DNA of 16,642 nucleotides from UHGV virus genome UHGV-1941890; one strand, 5' to 3'. Shown one piece after another: positions 1-9,039 of this stretch. Position 1 is the stretch's first letter, and every line of letters starts with the position of its first letter. The notes below the pieces were generated by a model. It saw only the letters and a program-made list of their open reading frames with translations, was not told where the DNA came from and made no database searches. A program made the translations under genes and the position numbers. The DNA is from a virus.

Positions 1-372
1 CAATCCGGCGCCATGATAATGGGCAGCCTGTGGAGTGATGCCAATCCGGCCCCCGGCAAAAGCCTGAAAGAAATCGTGGTCAGCGCGCCGGATGGCGCGG
101 TGTTCCGCTACGACGCAGACGCAGGCGCACTGAGCGCCAGCGGCATGAAAACAGCCACCCTGCAGGCATCCGTCAGCGTGACACTGGACACGCCTGTCGT
201 GGAATGCACAGACCTTCTGAGAACAGCGACGCTTGACGTCACAAAAGGGGGAACGATGAGCGGCAATATCACGCACAGCGGCGGCGACTTCACCTCAAAC
301 GGCATCACAGTGCATACGCATAAGCACGGTGGCGTTAAAGGTGGCAGCGATTCGACAGGAGGCCCGCAGTGA
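1..372 (+). CDS. V: Baseplate central spike protein gpV, 5'-truncated by the window edge
   Basis: Reading frame is open from base 1 to TGA at 370-372. The Gly/Ser/Thr-rich C-terminus (...HTHKHGGVKGGSDSTGGPQ) resembles the P2 gpV family as I remember it. Its stop overlaps the GTG start of the next gene (GTGA), and it sits in the V-W-J-I-H-G order. Confidence 0.75.
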   Translation, partial: QSGAMIMGSLWSDANPAPGKSLKEIVVSAPDGAVFRYDADAGALSASGMKTATLQASVSVTLDTPVVECTDLLRTATLDVTKGGTMSGNITHSGGDFTSNGITVHTHKHGGVKGGSDSTGGPQ

Positions 373-719
373 CAACCCGCTACACAGGAATGAATCCGGA
401 CGGGACGGGAAACCTGAACGATATGGAGCACCTGAAACAGTCAGTCAGGGACATCCTGACCACCCCGCTGGCAAGCCGGGTTATGCGACGGGAATATGGC
501 AGCCTTGTGCCTGATTTGATTGACGAACCCATGAATAACACCACGCGTCTGCAATGCATGAGTGCTGCCGTGATTGCGCTGACACGATGGGAACCCCGCA
601 TTGCCCTGGATGCCATCGACGTTGTCTGGAAAGCGGGAGGCCGCGCCGGGGTGACGCTGTCGGGCACTGTCATGCAGACCATGCAGAATGTTGAATTAAC
701 CATCACGCTGAGGGAGTAA
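369..719 (+). CDS. W: Baseplate wedge protein gpW (gp25-like)
   Basis: 116-aa ORF (MTTRYTGMNPDG...TITLRE), the size of P2 gpW (~115 aa). GTG start overlaps the V stop; an alternative ATG lies 7 codons in. Stop is 3 nt before the J start. Confidence 0.75.
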   Translation: MTTRYTGMNPDGTGNLNDMEHLKQSVRDILTTPLASRVMRREYGSLVPDLIDEPMNNTTRLQCMSAAVIALTRWEPRIALDAIDVVWKAGGRAGVTLSGTVMQTMQNVELTITLRE

Positions 720-722
720 ATC

Positions 723-1614
723 ATGCCCGCCGTTGACCTTTCACAGTTACCGGACCCCGCCATCATCGCGGAACCTGACTTTGAGGCAATTCTGGCTGAC
801 ACAAAGGCCATGATGATTGCGGCTTATCCCGCCGAACAGCGTGAAGCCGTCTCCGCCGCGCTGGAGCTGGAATCGGAACCCCTGAACGTTATCGCCCAGA
901 CAACAGCGTTTCGTGAAATGCTGTTACGCCAGCGGGTCAATGAGGGGGCACGCGCCTGCATGTTAAGCCACAGCGCCGGGACAGACCTGGACAACCTCGC
1001 GGGCAATATGAACACAAAGCGCCTGACCATCACTCCGGCAACGGATACCACCGACGCGGTGATGGAGAGTGACACCTCGCTGAGACTGCGGGCGCAGCGG
1101 GCGTACGACGGCCTGAGTGTTGCTGGCCCGTCAGGTGCATACGAGTATTTTGCCCGCAGCGCCAGCGGTCTGGTGCGTGATGCGCGGGCTATCAGTCCGT
1201 CTCCGGCCAACGTGACGGTTTCCATCCTGTCCACTGAAGGCGACGGCACAGCAACGGAGGCGTTGCTTAATACCGTTCGTGCCGTTCTGAATGCAGAGGA
1301 TACCCGCCCGGTGGCCGACCGCCTGACCGTACAGAGTGCCAGAATCGTGACATGGCGGCTGAATGCAAAACTGTACTTTTATCCCGNNNNNNNNNNCTAT
1401 TCGGGCTGCGGCTGAATCGTCGTTCAGGAAGTGGCTGGCTGAGCAGGGGCTTATCGGTCAGGACGTGGCGTTGTCCGCCATTGCTGCCGCACTGCATGTG
1501 CACGGTGTGCAACGCGTGGAGATAATCGAACCCACACAGAATATGGCCATCAGCGACATACAGGCGGCGCGCTGTGAGTCATTCACCATCAGCGAAGGTG
1601 GGCGTAATGAGTAA
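723..1614 (+). CDS. J: Baseplate assembly protein gpJ (gp6-like), interrupted by an assembly gap
   Basis: ORF 723..1415 and ORF 1363..1614 are the N- and C-terminal parts of one ~300-aa protein. They are in different frames only because of the 10-N run at 1387-1396. GGAG sits 8 nt upstream of the ATG at 723; the stop at 1612-1614 overlaps the I start. Confidence 0.75.
1387..1396. other. Run of 10 N: scaffold/assembly gap of unknown true length inside gpJ
   Basis: Literal nnnnnnnnnn in the sequence. The upstream J frame (codon start 1386) and downstream J frame (codon start 1396) differ by 10 nt, so the real gap length is not 10. Confidence 0.95.
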
Positions 1615-2134
1615 TTCACTGTTACCGCCATCAGCCAGCAATTTCATGCGTTGCGCCGAAGCTGTCGGAGCGCGCATTACAGACATTCCGGTAGACCTCA
1701 ACACGCTGTGGTCGCCGGACACCTGCCCGGTGCATCTGCTGCCTTATCTCGCCTGGGCATTTTCCGTTGACCGCTGGGATCGCAACTGGCCGGAAGAGAC
1801 AAAGCGACAGGTGATTCGTGATGCATGGCTGATACACCGACACAAGGGAACCATCAGCGCACTGCGCCGGGCCATTGAGCCGCTGGGATATCTCATTCGT
1901 GTGTCTGAGTGGTGGGAGTTCGACGGCGAACCCGGAACATTCAAGGTTGATGTTGGCGCGCTGGACAGTGGTGTGACCGAGGAAATGTATCTGGAAATGG
2001 AACGGCTGATTGCCGATGCCAAACCCGCAAGTCGCCACCTTATCGGCCTGAACATTATCCAGGACATTCCCGGCTATCTGTATACAGGCGGTGTGGTCTG
2101 TGATGGTGATGTTATTACTGTTTATCCCGGATAA
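1607..2134 (+). CDS. I: Baseplate/tail-fibre attachment protein gpI
   Basis: 176-aa product from the ATG at 1607 (MSNSLLPP...), inside the longer 1574 ORF and overlapping the J stop (ATGAGTAA). Size matches P2 gpI (~176 aa) and the position is between J and H. Confidence 0.75.
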   Translation: MSNSLLPPSASNFMRCAEAVGARITDIPVDLNTLWSPDTCPVHLLPYLAWAFSVDRWDRNWPEETKRQVIRDAWLIHRHKGTISALRRAIEPLGYLIRVSEWWEFDGEPGTFKVDVGALDSGVTEEMYLEMERLIADAKPASRHLIGLNIIQDIPGYLYTGGVVCDGDVITVYPG

Positions 2135-2144
2135 GTGAGAAACA

Positions 2145-4880
2145 ATGAGCACGAAATTTAAAACCGTTATCACTACTGCCGGAGCCGCGAAGCTGGCAGC
2201 CGCCACTGTCCCCGGCGGGAAAAAAGTAACTCTGTCTGCAATGGCCGTGGGTGACGGTAATGGCAAATTGCCGGTGCCGGATGCCGGTCAGACGAAACTG
2301 GTGCATGAGGTCTGGCGTCACGCTCTGAATAAAGTCAGCGTGGATAACAAGAATAAAAACTATATCGTGGCTGAACTGGTTGTACCGCCAGAAGTGGGCG
2401 GCTTCTGGATGCGTGAGCTGGGTCTGTATGACGATGCCGGAACACTGATTGCGGTCGCCAACATGGCAGAAAGCTATAAGCCTGAACTGGCTGAAGGCTC
2501 CGGACGTGCGCAGACCTGCCGCATGGTCATTATTGTCAGTAACGTGGCGTCCGTTGAGCTGAGTATTGATGCCAGCACAGTGATGGCGACGCAGGATTAC
2601 GTCGATAACAAAATCGCAGAACATGAGCAGTCCCGCCGCCATCCTGACGCCACGCTGACAGAAAAAGGTTTTACTCAGTTAAGCAGTGCAACAAACAGCA
2701 CCAGTGAAAGGCTGGCAGCAACGCCAAAGGCAGTAAAAGCAGCCTATGACAATGCTGAAAAACGTATGCAGAAAGACCAGAACGGTGGCGATATTCCAGA
2801 TAAGGACGCTTTTCTGGACAATGTTGGCGTTACCAGCCTGACGTTTATGAAAAACAATGGCGAAATGCCGGTTGATGCCGACCTGAATACATTTGGTCCC
2901 GTTAAGGCTTATCTTGGCGTCTGGTCTAAAGCTACATCCACTAACGCGACGGCTGCTAAAAATTTCCCTGAAGACGGTGCAGTCGGTGTACTGGAGGTAT
3001 TCAATGGCGGTAATTTTTCAGGAATGCAGCGTTATACCACCAGAACAGGCGATGTTTATATGCGCAACCTTTCTGGCACATGGAATGGTTCAGACGGTCC
3101 GTGGAGTTACTGGCGTCAGGTTCAGTCTGCAACACGCCCCCTGAGCACAACCATTGACCTGAACACGCTCGGAGGCGCAGAGCATCTTGGTTTATGGCGA
3201 AACAGTAGTGGCTCAATCGCTTCATTTGACCGCAACTATCCGGAAGAAGGAAGTTATGGTCAGGGACTCCTTGAAGTTCTTGAAGGTGGTGGTTACTCGC
3301 GAACGCAGCGTTACACGACCCGCCGTGGAAATGTTTATGTTCGCTGTCTTTCGGCCTCGTGGGATGCAGAGAACCCACAGTGGGAGCCGTGGTCAAGAGT
3401 GGGCTACCAGTCAGAAAGCCGTTATTACGACGGTGATTTGAATGATGTAACCTCACCAGGTATTTACAGCGTTACAGGTAAAGCGACCAATGGTCCAATA
3501 CTGGACGGAAACGGCGTGACAGTCCTCGGTATTCTGGAAGTGTTGAGGCGCTTTGATGGTGTTAACGTATGGCAGCGTTATACAACTGCCGGAACAGGTA
3601 CAACCCTTAAAGGTCGCACGTTTGAGCGCGTTTTTACCGGCAGCTCATGGAGCGAATGGCGGGAAGTTTACACATCTTATTCACTTTCCCTGAATCTGGG
3701 TATCGGTGGCGCAGTAGCAAAACTCACCAGCCTGGACTGGCAGACCTACGATTTTGTGCCGGGCAGTCTGATAACCGTTCGGCTGGATAATATGACCAAT
3801 ATTCCCGACGGTATGGACTGGGGCGTCATTGATGGCAACCTGATAAATATCGCTGTTGGTCCGAGTGATGATTCCGGTACGGGACGCTCAATGCATGTAT
3901 GGCGCAGCACTGTAAGTAAAGCCAACTACCGCTTTTTTATGGTGCGTATTTCAGGAAATCCGGGAAGCCGCACGATCACGACAAGACGTGTGCCAATCAT
4001 TGACGAAGCACAGACATGGGGCGCGAAACAGACATTCAGTGCTGGCCTTTCTGGTGAACTGTCCGGCAATGCGGCGACAGCAACAAAGCTGAAAACAGCC
4101 TGTAAAATTAATAACGTTTCGTTTGATGGGACATCAGATATTAACCTGACGCCGAAAAATATTGGTGCATTTGCTTCAGGAAAAACAGGAGACACCGTTG
4201 CGAATGATAAAGCCGTTGGATGGAACTGGAGTAGCGGAGCCTATAACGCAACTATTAGTGGGGCATCAACATTAATTCTTCATTTTAATATCGGTGAAGG
4301 AAGTTGCCCCGCCGCCCAGTTCCGCGTTAATTATAAGAACGGCGGTATTTTTTATCGTTCTGCTCGTGACGGTTACGGATTCGAGGCTGACTGGTCTGAG
4401 TTTTATACCACAACGCGAAAACCTACAGCGGGAGATGTCGGTGCACTGTCGTTATCTGGTGGTCAATTGAATGGTGCACTGGGTATCGGAACATCCAGTG
4501 CTCTTGGCGGTAATTCGATTGTTTTGGGTGATAATGACACGGGCTTTAAACAGAATGGTGATGGTAATCTGGATGTTTATGCTAATAACGTCCATGTTAT
4601 GCGCTTTGTTTCCGGCAGCATTCAGAGTAATAAAACCGTAAATATTACGGGGCGCGTTAACCCCTCGGATTACGGCAATTTTGATGGCCGATACGTGAGG
4701 GATGTCCGACTTGGCACACGTGTTGTTCAGACCATGCAAAAAGGCGTGATGTATGAGAAATCAGGCCATGTAATTACCGGGCTTGGCATTGTCGGCGAAG
4801 TTGATGGCGACGATCCGGCAGTATTCAGACCAATACAAAAGTTAATTAACGGAACGTGGTACAACGTGTCACAGGTGTAA
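2145..4880 (+). CDS. H: Tail fibre protein gpH (911 aa), mosaic: P2-like N-terminus, internal tandem fibre repeats, P2-like C-terminus
   Basis: N-terminus MSTKFKTVITTAGAAKLAAATVPGG...FWMRELGLYDDAGTLIAVANMAESYKP and C-terminus ...ALGGNSIVLGDNDTGFKQNGDGNLDVYAN...RPIQKLINGTWYNVSQV match my recollection of P2 gpH. It is the longest + strand ORF and lies directly upstream of the fibre assembly gene. Confidence 0.9.
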   Translation: MSTKFKTVITTAGAAKLAAATVPGGKKVTLSAMAVGDGNGKLPVPDAGQTKLVHEVWRHALNKVSVDNKNKNYIVAELVVPPEVGGFWMRELGLYDDAGTLIAVANMAESYKPELAEGSGRAQTCRMVIIVSNVASVELSIDASTVMATQDYVDNKIAEHEQSRRHPDATLTEKGFTQLSSATNSTSERLAATPKAVKAAYDNAEKRMQKDQNGGDIPDKDAFLDNVGVTSLTFMKNNGEMPVDADLNTFGPVKAYLGVWSKATSTNATAAKNFPEDGAVGVLEVFNGGNFSGMQRYTTRTGDVYMRNLSGTWNGSDGPWSYWRQVQSATRPLSTTIDLNTLGGAEHLGLWRNSSGSIASFDRNYPEEGSYGQGLLEVLEGGGYSRTQRYTTRRGNVYVRCLSASWDAENPQWEPWSRVGYQSESRYYDGDLNDVTSPGIYSVTGKATNGPILDGNGVTVLGILEVLRRFDGVNVWQRYTTAGTGTTLKGRTFERVFTGSSWSEWREVYTSYSLSLNLGIGGAVAKLTSLDWQTYDFVPGSLITVRLDNMTNIPDGMDWGVIDGNLINIAVGPSDDSGTGRSMHVWRSTVSKANYRFFMVRISGNPGSRTITTRRVPIIDEAQTWGAKQTFSAGLSGELSGNAATATKLKTACKINNVSFDGTSDINLTPKNIGAFASGKTGDTVANDKAVGWNWSSGAYNATISGASTLILHFNIGEGSCPAAQFRVNYKNGGIFYRSARDGYGFEADWSEFYTTTRKPTAGDVGALSLSGGQLNGALGIGTSSALGGNSIVLGDNDTGFKQNGDGNLDVYANNVHVMRFVSGSIQSNKTVNITGRVNPSDYGNFDGRYVRDVRLGTRVVQTMQKGVMYEKSGHVITGLGIVGEVDGDDPAVFRPIQKLINGTWYNVSQV
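2880..3668 (+). repeat. Three tandem ~92-aa coding repeats inside gpH (phage tail-fibre repeat type)
   Basis: Units begin at nt 2880, 3156 and 3435 (DLNTFGPV..., DLNTLGGA..., DLNDVTSP...). Each carries G(V/L/I)LEV...QRYTT(R)xG..Y.R......W..W(R)xV. Read directly from the translation. Confidence 0.6.
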
Positions 4881-4883
4881 TTT

Positions 4884-5441
4884 ATGCAGCATTTAAAAAA
4901 CATTGTCGCCGGCAATCCAAAAACCGTTGAGCAATATCAGCTAACAAAAAATTTTAATGTTGCCTGGCTGTGGTCAGAAGACGGAAAAAACTGGTATGAG
5001 GAAGTGAAGAACTTTCAGCCGGACACAATAAAAATTCTTTACGACGAGAACAATATTATTGTGGCCGTAACCAGAGACGCTTCAACACTGGACCCTACAG
5101 GCTACAGCGTTGTCGAAGTTCCCGATATCACCGCCAATCGTCGCGCCGACGATTCAGGAAAGTGGCTGGTTTAGGGCGGGGGCGTGGGGTAAAAGGTTTT
5201 TAAGGACGGAGCTGTGGTTAAACGGATTTATACGGCAGACGAGCAGCAACAGCAGGCCGAATTACAAAAGGCCGCATTGCTTTCCGAAGCTGAATCAGTC
5301 ATCCAGCAGCTGGAACGCGCTGTCAGGCTGAATATGGCGACGGATGAGGAGCGCACACGACTGGAAGCTTGGGAACGCTACAGCGTTCTGGTCAGCCGTG
5401 TGGATACAGCAAAGCCCGAATGGCCACAAAAGCCTGAGTAA
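4884..5441 (+). pseudogene. G: Tail-fibre assembly gene gpG, split by two in-frame stops (TAG 5172-5174, TAA 5190-5192) into a 96-aa N-terminal ORF and a 75-aa C-terminal ORF
   Basis: ORF 4884..5174 ([24 protein letters not shown]...DDSGKWLV*) and ORF 5214..5441 (GTG start; [22 protein letters not shown]...[13 protein letters not shown]) are in the same frame. Together they are the length of an intact ~175-aa Tfa/gpG. The C-terminal half carries the Tfa C-terminal signature (...W..YSVL.SRVDT..PEWP..P). Confidence 0.65.
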
Positions 5442-5654
5442 AAATTAAGCTCCGATATCGGGCCTTCTCTCATTCTGGTTGTTCGGGAAACGTTACTGGC
5501 AGGCCGGAGGTGTCTGTGGATTCGACTTTCTACGCGTAGAGCATCCATTCGGTTAATTTTTGTTTATTCTCGTCGGAAATGATGCCCAGCCGTAGCTGTG
5601 AGCCCCATAGGCGATATACAGACTGAAGAAACAACCAGGCAGACCCAGGAAAAA

Positions 5655-5694: not shown

Positions 5695-6183
5695 TCAGAA
5701 CAGCCCTTTAACTGAACTGGTTGCGCTGTTAAGAGATGATGTCACCTTATCTTTGAAGCCAGACAGCATATCGCTGAACGATGAGGATTGCAGGCGCTCC
5801 CGCAAATCCTCATCACAGCGTTCAAGGGTCAGTGAAAATTCTATCTTTTTCGCCTTACCGTAGCGATCAAACTCGGAACGGGTCGTATTCGTTTCGGTCA
5901 GAACATACATGCCGTAAATCTGCCCGACGCCATCAATAAGAGGCCAGGGGCGTCCTGTATACGCCTGCGTGGTCAGCAGCGACAGCGACACTTCGCCACC
6001 TGTAATTTCAGGATAAAGCATGCCGGAAAGCACAATGCGATCATCACCTGCACCGATATACTGCCAGCTTGCTGAACGGTTAACGCGTTCATTTTTCACA
6101 TGCCGCCAGTTTTTGTTTTGCTGTAACTGCTGATGCGGCAGTGTGCGCAGCTCAAAAACAAACATGCCGTAGATCATCATCAT
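5695..6183 (-). CDS. U: Tail protein gpU
   Basis: − strand ORF MMMIYGMFVFELRTLP...YPEITGG...WPLIDG..G.IYGMYV...KIEFSL. GAGGAG is 8 nt upstream of the ATG at 6183 (the ATG at 6189 is only 2 nt from it), and the SD overlaps the T stop. Size matches P2 gpU (~160 aa). Confidence 0.75.
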   Translation of the reverse strand: MMMIYGMFVFELRTLPHQQLQQNKNWRHVKNERVNRSASWQYIGAGDDRIVLSGMLYPEITGGEVSLSLLTTQAYTGRPWPLIDGVGQIYGMYVLTETNTTRSEFDRYGKAKKIEFSLTLERCDEDLRERLQSSSFSDMLSGFKDKVTSSLNSATSSVKGLF

Positions 6184-6195
6184 GACCATGACTCC

Positions 6196-9039
6196 TCAAT
6201 CTTTATCGTAAAAACTGCCACGTCCGGCACGGGCGCGCCGTTCCATCTCTGCCCTGACCATTTCACCGACCAGTTTCGCCAGTTCGCGGGGATTCTGCGT
6301 AACAACGTTATGCAGATGGACATGAATTTCACCACCAAATCCGGAGGCAACAGGCTCCCGGTTACGGGAAGTTGCAGGAACTGATGCCACTGGCGATCGT
6401 ATGGCCTCCGCCACCGGGCGGGAGCTGGCCGCAACAACAGGGACCAGCGCCGGAGGCAGCGGAGCCGGGACCACGGGTGTGATATTAATTGCGGGGGCAG
6501 GCTTACTGACATGCGCAATCTTCCGCTCCTGCCATTCCCCACGAACAGCAAGTGCGCGGGGCAGGTTCTTAAAGACAATATCGCCGGGGCCAATGCGTTT
6601 TTTCGTCTCATCAACCAGCTTACCTGTGTTATCAGCAATTTTGCTGAGTCTGCGTAGCGTCCCGGTATTGCTGTCTGTGAGCGGTTTGTTGTCTTTGGGT
6701 TTATCACCTCCGGTGCCATTGCCATTTTCCACAGGCTTCGGCGGATTGATTTTCGCAAGGTCCCCCTGAAGCAAGGCAACCTTGTCCTGAAGAATAGCCG
6801 CACGCTGTGCGTCTTCGATTTTCTTGCGCGCCCTTTCCGCTTCATCCGGAAGGACGCCAAGTTTTTCAAGTATCCACGCCAGCGTATCCAGTAGCATTTT
6901 TGCAGGTGTCAGAACAAGCTGTAACGCACCGCCAAGAACGTTACCGAATATCTCGCCAGCACTGGTACATTTATCCAGCGTTTCCTTGCTGGACTCCATC
7001 GGTGACAGCAGCGATTTAAACCAGTTAAACACCTGGCTGATCCCGCTTCCGATTGCGTCAAAAACAGGACCAAACCGTTCAAAGGTTTCGCGCAACGGGG
7101 TCAGCCTTTCCATAATCCCGCTGAACACCCCGGCAAAAAATGCCCTGATGGGATCCCAGTATTTCCAGATAAGAACGGCAGCTCCGGCAAGCGCAGCCAC
7201 GATAAGACCAACCGGACTGAACAGCGCCCCGATAGCGCCTCCCAGTAAAGAAACGGAACCCGTCACCATTCCCCACAGCGCAGGCAACACCCTGACGACA
7301 TTCATTGACCGGGTAAGAATGTCAAAACCAAGACGCAGGGTGGCCAGCTTCCCGTAAAGCACCCCAATAACCAGCGACAACGAGCCAATCGTTGCAGTCA
7401 TTGCCAGCAACGCACCGCCTGCTATCAGTAGCTGGCGCGTCAGTACCGGATGGGCCTGCGCCAGCGAGGTGATTTTTTCAAGCACCCGCGTGAACCACTG
7501 CGTGACAGAACGCAGCGGACCGTCAACCAGATCACTGATGCGAATACGAAGACCTTCCCATGCGCTGTCGAGATTTTTCAGGTCCCCATCAAGATTATCG
7601 GCCATTACTTTTGCGACGCGATCGGCCTCTCCCCTTGCCCCCTGCAATTCTCTGGTCAGTTTTTGCAGCTCTCCTGAACCAGCCGCCGCAACAAGCGTCT
7701 GCAAACCAACGAACGCCTCTTCTCCGGCGATGTCCTTGAAGAAGGAAACCTGGTCCACCTGTCCGTATTTTTGTGTCGCCTTATAGAGATCAAGCAGCAC
7801 ATCCTCCATCGGGCGCATTTTGCCTCTGGCGTCAGCAACTGACACTCCCAGCTCTTTCAGCGCATCAGCCGCAGCTTTTGGCGGTGATGCAAGGCGGGAC
7901 AGACTTGCGCGCATGGCCGTACCAGCATCGCTTCCGCGAAGACCATTATTGGCAAGCATCCCGGCCATGGCCGCCGCTTCTTCAAGACTGATACCAAGTT
8001 TTGCGGCAACCGGACCGGTATACTTCATGGTTTCGCCCAGCGCGCGTAAATCAGTATTGGTCCGGGTGAATGCTGCTGTCAGCGTATCGCCAACCCGGTC
8101 CATTTGATCGGCTGTCAGGTTGAACTGTGTGAGGATATTGGAGCCTATATCAGCCGTCTCGCCGAGTTCGACGCCACCTGCCAGCGCCATATTAAGAACA
8201 CCGGGCAATGCGGCCTGAATGGCCTGCGGAGTAAAACCAGCCATTGCCAGAAAGCTCTGCCCACTGGCGGCATCACTCGCAGTAAACTGTGTTTCAGAGC
8301 CAAGTTTTAACGCCTGCTCACGCAGCGCCTTAAACTGCGGGCTGTTTTTGTCGATTCGCGTCAGTGCCTGAACGCGGGACATCTCTTTGCCGAACCCGAT
8401 CGCAGGCTGCAAAAAACGCCCGGCAGCATAGCCGCCCGCCGCTGCCGCACCAATTGCCAGCGCACCACCTGTTTTCAGTTTTCCCGCAGTTTCCTGCGCG
8501 CGCGAATACCGCTCACGCGCCCTCGTTACACGCGCAAGCGCCTGCCGTTCGCGTTCAAGCTGGTTGTTGTATTGTTCGGTGCGTCTGATGGCCTGCTGAA
8601 TGGTGTTATCGCTGCCTGTCAGTGAAATGCCGTGGCGTTTCAGCTCTCCGCCAAGCTCCCGCATTTTCTGAATTTCCCGTGTGCGCGATTCATTCAGGCG
8701 TTCAAGCCGGGTGCTTAACTGCTGCATCAGCTTTTGTTGTTTTTCGCTGAGCACTGTACCCGTGCGTTGTAACTGATTAAGGGCGTTAAGCTGGCGTCGT
8801 GCTTTCACGATGCCCGCATCCGCTTTACTGACAGCGTCACGGGCGCGCTCAAATGATCGCGCCTGACGCTCGAGATTTTTGATCGCCCCCTGCGTTCGCT
8901 GGATGGAGTCACCAAACTGCCCCATCAGGCGGCGGGCATTTTCGGCAGGCCGGGTCAGCCTGTCAACGGCGCTGAAAGCGACCCGGATATCAAGAGTCTT
9001 CATTGTCTGCATTCCCGCTGCGAAGTGCCGCCCGCTCAC
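6196..9039 (-). CDS. T: Tail tape measure protein gpT
   Basis: Up to 947 aa, Ala/Gly/Leu-rich with predicted hydrophobic central helices, upstream of U and overlapped at its 5' end by the E' frame. Start is uncertain (GTG 9039, ATG 9012 or ATG 9003). Confidence 0.85.
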   Translation of the reverse strand: MSGRHFAAGMQTMKTLDIRVAFSAVDRLTRPAENARRLMGQFGDSIQRTQGAIKNLERQARSFERARDAVSKADAGIVKARRQLNALNQLQRTGTVLSEKQQKLMQQLSTRLERLNESRTREIQKMRELGGELKRHGISLTGSDNTIQQAIRRTEQYNNQLERERQALARVTRARERYSRAQETAGKLKTGGALAIGAAAAGGYAAGRFLQPAIGFGKEMSRVQALTRIDKNSPQFKALREQALKLGSETQFTASDAASGQSFLAMAGFTPQAIQAALPGVLNMALAGGVELGETADIGSNILTQFNLTADQMDRVGDTLTAAFTRTNTDLRALGETMKYTGPVAAKLGISLEEAAAMAGMLANNGLRGSDAGTAMRASLSRLASPPKAAADALKELGVSVADARGKMRPMEDVLLDLYKATQKYGQVDQVSFFKDIAGEEAFVGLQTLVAAAGSGELQKLTRELQGARGEADRVAKVMADNLDGDLKNLDSAWEGLRIRISDLVDGPLRSVTQWFTRVLEKITSLAQAHPVLTRQLLIAGGALLAMTATIGSLSLVIGVLYGKLATLRLGFDILTRSMNVVRVLPALWGMVTGSVSLLGGAIGALFSPVGLIVAALAGAAVLIWKYWDPIRAFFAGVFSGIMERLTPLRETFERFGPVFDAIGSGISQVFNWFKSLLSPMESSKETLDKCTSAGEIFGNVLGGALQLVLTPAKMLLDTLAWILEKLGVLPDEAERARKKIEDAQRAAILQDKVALLQGDLAKINPPKPVENGNGTGGDKPKDNKPLTDSNTGTLRRLSKIADNTGKLVDETKKRIGPGDIVFKNLPRALAVRGEWQERKIAHVSKPAPAINITPVVPAPLPPALVPVVAASSRPVAEAIRSPVASVPATSRNREPVASGFGGEIHVHLHNVVTQNPRELAKLVGEMVRAEMERRARAGRGSFYDKD

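Follow-up and report, generated by a model that had tools for sequence, protein, structure and literature searches.

A degraded tandem copy of adjacent sequence, probably an assembly artefact, interrupts the tail-fibre assembly gene of a P88-like prophage contig

Tail-fibre assembly proteins and related systems

Tail-fibre assembly (Tfa) proteins of the Caudo_TAP family, such as the U protein of phage Mu (TfaMu, PDB 5YVQ, chain B), gpG of phage P2, and the U and U' proteins of phages P1 and P7, are encoded by single unbroken open reading frames (ORFs) of ∼175 codons. In P2, gene G is essential for fibre assembly, and its truncation would give a fibre-defective phage. Proteins of this kind are modular and combine a variable fibre-binding N-terminal domain with a conserved C-terminal helical domain (PMC9608196). 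The gene described here belongs to the same family, and its product matches Mu U over the full length of the protein, but the gene itself, as written, is broken.

Among the described phages, P88 (Xuanwuvirus, Peduoviridae) has the same gene layout as the stretch of DNA analyzed in this work. The intact counterparts of the broken gene, which encode the Tfa protein WP_001561024.1, are found in P88-like prophages (i.e., those of the Xuanwuvirus type, Peduoviridae) of E. coli M21816, RIVM_C040348, and BCE049. In these prophages, all 528 nt that lie outside the insert are identical to those reported below, and the 30 bases after codon 95 that put TAG and TAA codons into the gene are absent.

Two more distant systems also bear on this locus. 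Draft short-read assemblies can contain small spurious tandem duplications at contig joins, left there by unmerged overlaps and gap-closing errors. Gene 60 of phage T4, which is translated by ribosome bypassing, carries a take-off codon followed by UAG, with an identical landing codon further downstream (PMC7026636).

The tail-fibre assembly gene and its surroundings

The sequence under study, referred to here as the window, is the entire 16,642-nt stretch of the virus genome UHGV-1941890. It includes the following gene:

4884 to 5441, plus strand: tail-fibre assembly (chaperone) gene, a homologue of P2 G and Mu U, recognized from its translation, PF02413, and PDB entry 5yvq_B

As written, this gene is broken off after codon 95, and the ORF at 4884-5174 translates into 96 aa. 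Deletion of positions 5169-5198 produces an intact gene of 528 nt that translates into a 175-aa protein, which supports the statement in an earlier note on this DNA that an intact Tfa should be ∼175 aa long. With the insert removed, the 175-aa product matched the Pfam domain PF02413 (Caudo_TAP) with an E value of 7.6e-36 and the Mu tail fibre assembly protein U (5yvq_B) with an E value of 2.4e-100, residues 1-175 being aligned with residues 1-175. The solved structure of Mu U has 88% protein identity to the Tfa encoded in the window. When the pieces were compared separately, the 75-aa C-terminal piece was still recognized by the Caudo_TAP model (1.3e-22), and the 96-aa N-terminal piece scored 21.9 bits, slightly below the cut-off of 22.1.

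The tail-fibre gene H (positions 2145-4880; 911 aa, with Phage_tail_fib and Phage_fiber_2 domains) ends 3 nt upstream of the ATG at 4884. Thus, both the profile and structure matches and the position directly 3' of the fibre gene are those of a Caudo_TAP family member of the P2 G/Mu U type, and the earlier assignment of this locus to gene G was correct. What departs from the family is the single unbroken ORF of ∼175 codons, which is here divided by two in-frame stops into 96-aa and 75-aa pieces; as had been noted before, these two Tfa-like ORFs (4884-5174 and the C-terminal one, which ends at 5441) share a reading frame.

The order of genes in the window is V, W, J, I, H, and G on the plus strand, followed by a tfa remnant, U, T, E', E, FII, and FI on the minus strand, and then by D. 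The loci encoding WP_001561024.1 have the same neighbours, with V, W, J, I, and H upstream and the tfa remnant, U, T, E, FII, and FI downstream. The remnant (positions 5530-5613, minus strand) is a short inverted piece of a second tail-fibre assembly gene, which is listed as a pseudogene in the RefSeq relatives. In phage P88, G and U are separated by a DNA invertase gene and an alternative set of fibre and tfa genes; these are missing from the window, and the invertible host-range switch seems to have been lost in its prophage. The FI-FII-E-E'-T-U tail block (5695-11280, minus strand) is inverted relative to the segments 1-5441 and 11438-12547 (both plus strand), unlike its arrangement in P2; this inversion is a known feature of the lineage and is found in phage P88 as well. 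Further downstream, a 1039-aa ORF (12796-15915, plus strand) located between D and ogr had no match in Pfam or PADLOC. Related prophages list other cargo, including HxsB/HxsC, GmrSD, a KAP NTPase, an MFS transporter, and YecA; if that cargo occupies the D-ogr slot, the slot would be a hotspot for variable cargo or defence genes.

Extent of the insert

The features of the interrupted region are as follows:

5169 to 5198, plus strand: extra segment GTTTAGGGCGGGGGCGTGGGGTAAAAGGTT, delimited by gap placement against three intact genes
5172 to 5174, plus strand: in-frame TAG, which corresponds to the out-of-frame TAA of the native TTT-AAG with A changed to G, shifted by the extra G at 5169
5190 to 5192, plus strand: in-frame TAA, which corresponds to the out-of-frame TAA of the native GTT-AAA, brought into frame in the shifted copy
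5199 to 5228, plus strand: native 30 nt TTTAAGGACGGAGCTGTGGTTAAACGGATT, the source of the noisy copy, identical to the reference genomes
5214 to 5441, plus strand: 75-aa ORF starting from GTG (a putative restart), with GGAG at 5208-5211, 2 nt upstream; these bases are also present in the intact gene

The earlier note described a G-rich insert of 27 nt and proposed to define it exactly by aligning it to intact homologues. Such an alignment, with the intact genes of near-identical E. coli prophages, placed the gap uniquely at 5169-5198, so the length had to be corrected to 30 nt. In the intact gene, this site reads TGG CTG TTT AAG (W L F K). A search with the 558-nt query retrieved 7 complete E. 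coli genomes at 94.1 to 94.6% identity with 528 nt matched in each record, which shows that the gene in those genomes is without the 30 nt. The positions of the two stop codons given earlier proved accurate, and so did the description of the stretch as G-rich: 16 of its 30 nt are G, compared to 24% G in the window. A 32-nt string that includes the insert occurs once in the window and was found in none of 200 shuffles.

Two other elements pointed out in the earlier note were only partly borne out. The pentanucleotide GGTTT is indeed present at both 5168-5172 and 5195-5199, but these copies are not the junctions of the insert. The intact sequence (TGG CTG TTT AAG) is not recovered when 27 nt and one GGTTT are deleted, which means that GGTTT is not a target-site duplication. 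Likewise, the GTG codon at 5214 and the preceding GGAG are both in place, but the spacing between them is 2 nt instead of the 3 nt stated earlier. Since the GGAG-CT-GTG string is unchanged in the intact gene, no restart signal has been created by the insert.

Origin of the insert

End-to-end global alignment of the insert with the 30 nt that follow it (5199-5228) produced 22 matches, 5 substitutions, and 3 single-base indels. Among the 33,028 30-mers of the window, counted on both strands, this adjacent 30-mer had the single best score, and only 2 of 20,000 shuffled inserts scored as high. The length of the insert equals that of the copied unit (30 nt). Local scores against the upstream flank and the reverse-complement flanks were at background level, a result that rejects template switching, whether the template was upstream sequence or the opposite strand. 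Thus, what interrupts the gene is a degraded and G-enriched copy, in tandem, of the 30 nt that come after it, displaced by a single extra G.

This relationship accounts for the features that made the segment look designed. A single extra G at the start of the copy shifts it by +1, with the result that the native TTT-AAG and GTT-AAA triplets are read in frame as TAG and TAA, respectively. In the same alignment, the first GGTTT is made up of a G of the native gene and the extra G, followed by the beginning of the copy; the second one joins the end of the copy (GGATT minus the A) to the T with which the true sequence opens. A shifted noisy repeat thus accounts for the two stops, the two GGTTT strings, and the designed look. 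Accordingly, the previous description of a real, compact piece of foreign DNA flanked by a direct repeat does not hold: the segment is a degraded copy of the adjacent 30 nt, seen once, in a contig that bears other defects. Adenine mutagenesis of the kind carried out by diversity-generating retroelements was also considered and rejected, as the changes go beyond adenines and the annotation of the region includes no reverse transcriptase.

Occurrence of the insert in other sequences

The exact 22-nt core of the insert had no matches in the GTDB representative genomes, IMG/VR, or the JGI metagenomes. A BLAST search with the insert against 5,426 complete E. coli genomes (E ≤ 10) retrieved no match, and a search of the plasmid collection matched the native flank only. 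The insert was likewise absent from the listed full-length E. coli matches, in which the gene is 528 nt long in 40 of 40 cases; all these 40 copies are unbroken, and no naturally split G was found among the relatives examined. A clean duplication of the 30-nt unit, which would be the expected intermediate, was not detected in the 5,426 complete E. coli genomes either, as the 200-nt test query collapsed to 170 nt in every top match. An exact look-up of the 96-aa and 75-aa products showed that neither is on record.

The fibre protein encoded next to this gene is widespread: the identical 911-aa sequence is indexed in 112 blocks of public assemblies. At both of the 911-aa-fibre loci that were displayed, it is accompanied by the intact 175-aa Tfa, and the other 22 contigs read, in a collapsed listing, have mostly the same neighbouring proteins.

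Other defects in the contig

Outside the insert, the window contains two additional regions that deviate from its relatives:

1 to 21, no strand: noisy contig start, with the first 9 nt unmatched and a window-only T-to-G change at position 21
1383 to 1403, no strand: assembly gap in the baseplate gene J, with ten Ns at 1387-1396 in place of 15 reference nt (net change of -5 nt) and a window-only T-to-G change 7 nt past the gap

Over 16,633 bases aligned with E. coli M21816, the window differs from the reference only at its start, at the N run, at the base after the gap, and at the insert. In two E. coli genomes, the same prophage is identical to it over 16.6 kb, barring the insert and the three blemishes. 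The first 9 nt read like the reference with substitutions and deletions introduced; both window-only G alleles are absent from four independent references. Through the N gap, gene J seems split into two ORFs, 723-1415 and 1363-1614; this split is a scaffold gap and not a frameshifted gene.

The first base of the window lies within gene V, and its last bases are the stop codon of hok. The latter gene, located at the far end of the window (16502-16642, plus strand), encodes a toxin of the Hok/Gef family. Sequences of both V and hok recur within E. coli genomes, and the stop of the contig at the hok stop codon is probably a repeat-induced break. Because both of its ends are in such recurring sequences, and because the N run fits as well, the window has the appearance of an entire scaffold from a short-read draft assembly.

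Evaluation of the possible explanations

The 30-nt insert is probably an unflagged bad join, that is, an assembly or base-calling error with no biological content. We infer this cause from three features that were observed directly: the copy relationship, the singleton status of the insert, and the presence of further assembly defects in the same contig. Two assembled pieces that overlapped by ∼30 nt may have been butted end to end rather than merged, and errors and a G bias at the end of the left piece could have prevented the merge. The outcome would be a garbled copy (5169-5198) placed directly before the true copy (5199-5228). A spurious extra G would then shift the garbled copy by +1, so that stops that are harmless out of frame would be read as TAG and TAA.

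Relative to M21816, the insert accumulates ∼8 differences within 30 nt, as opposed to two bases in the remaining 16.6 kb, a disparity that ordinary divergence after a true duplication cannot explain. Every other difference from the reference sits at an assembly defect. The resemblance to the join errors that assemblers and gap-closers can leave in drafts includes a duplication exactly at the junction, degradation of one of its sides, further gaps and noisy ends within the scaffold (the 10-N run, the 9 unmatched nt, and the two T-to-G changes), and a segment unsupported by other genomes; the difference is that the join in the window is not marked by Ns. The absence of Ns at the insert site, unlike in the gene J gap, is a point against an artefact. 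Another such point is the net gain: at exactly 30 nt, it is divisible by three and also fits a real in-frame duplication.

The position of the insert offers a plausible reason for a break at this very site. At the nucleotide level, the 285 nt of the N-terminal part are 79% identical to Mu U and the 243 nt of the C-terminal part are 93% identical to it, with the insert at the changeover; this step fits the modular build of the Tfa proteins (PMC9608196). The conserved C-terminal half is common to P1, P7, Mu, and P2-type elements and is present in up to 4 copies per genome. At such a repeated module, one would expect the graph of a short-read assembly to branch, and the start of the C-terminal tfa module may be what caused the break.

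Alternatively, the insert could be a real and very recent one-off event in a single isolate, either an imperfect 30-bp tandem duplication or a poorly templated insertion, which would truncate Tfa after residue 96 and disable tail-fibre assembly in an otherwise intact P88-like prophage. This explanation is unlikely, albeit with an appreciable chance of being correct. The insert is, after all, present in the sequence as given, inactivating lesions do build up in prophage genes, and a whole unit of neighbouring sequence, equal in length to its source and adjoining it, is what slippage would produce. However, a fresh duplication is expected to be exact, whereas this copy matches its source at 22 of 30 positions and differs from it in ∼8, including 3 indels. 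The flanking 16.6 kb contains only two base differences, both beside assembly defects, and similar noise is seen at the start and at the N gap of the same contig. In addition, the 5,426 complete E. coli genomes do not contain a clean duplication of the 30-nt unit, nor did any intermediate come to light. To our knowledge, no mechanism in E. coli writes a G-biased, indel-ridden copy in one step. Inactivation of G, which the earlier note put forward as one option, is possible if the insert is real.

A functional coding gap is very improbable. It would require either a ribosome hop from GTT at 5169-5171 to GTT at 5196-5198, producing full-length Tfa with one extra valine, or a two-piece chaperone made by reinitiation at the GTG at 5214. 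As in the 50-nt coding gap of T4 gene 60, the take-off codon is directly followed by a stop (TAG) and an identical landing codon is available downstream, in this case across 24 nt; the break is also close to the boundary between the variable N-terminal and conserved C-terminal domains of Tfa (PMC9608196). The differences from gene 60 are the 24-nt size of the gap, the lack of a predicted take-off stem-loop, the insert not being conserved, and the extra residue in the hop product. Folding of 42 nt and 96 nt gave z-scores of +0.55 and +1.19, respectively, relative to shuffles, and the centroid of the 42-nt fold was unpaired. The peptide upstream of the putative hop site is native Tfa sequence that is found in all relatives without the insert. 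The insert itself is not maintained in relatives, being confined to this one sequence among the three contig collections and the 5,426 E. coli genomes. A shifted copy of the next 30 nt automatically brings with it both the stops and the matched GTT codons, and the resemblance to T4 gene 60 is a by-product of that relationship. As for reinitiation, the spacing of just 2 nt between GGAG and GTG is the same as in the intact gene, and the interrupted region lies inside a single Pfam domain model (approximately profile positions 43-53 of 131). The two-polypeptide Tfa suggested in the earlier note is unsupported, as the gene is unsplit in all relatives examined and no new restart signal is present. 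That a real insert is tolerated, with Tfa split at its domain junction and rescued by the GTT-to-GTT hop over 24 nt or by separate expression of the domains, is hardly to be expected.

Finally, a mobile-element footprint, be it the excision scar of a transposon or IS with a 5-bp GGTTT target duplication or a piece of captured foreign DNA, would explain GGTTT on both sides but is highly improbable: the intact gene is not regained when one repeat and the 22 nt in between are deleted, the sole restoring deletion being 5169-5198, so that the 30-nt gap placement excludes a transposon footprint or target-site duplication, and the insert has no match elsewhere in E. coli or in the contig collections, its best match being the adjacent sequence.

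Implications

Were the insert a real mutation, it would represent an unremarkable private knockout, in a single isolate, of a tail gene that is essential. Were it tolerated through bypassing or domain splitting, it would be the first such case in a tail-fibre assembly gene of the P2/Mu type and of interest to specialists. With the insert regarded as a probable bad join, the organism itself probably has an unbroken tail-fibre assembly gene, and the prophage would then carry a normal tail-fibre chaperone gene, the lesson being one of data quality. Unflagged bad joins in draft scaffolds can look like pseudogenes or like inserts that are full of stops and seem designed; counts of cryptic prophages would be inflated by them, and they could pass for recoding sites.
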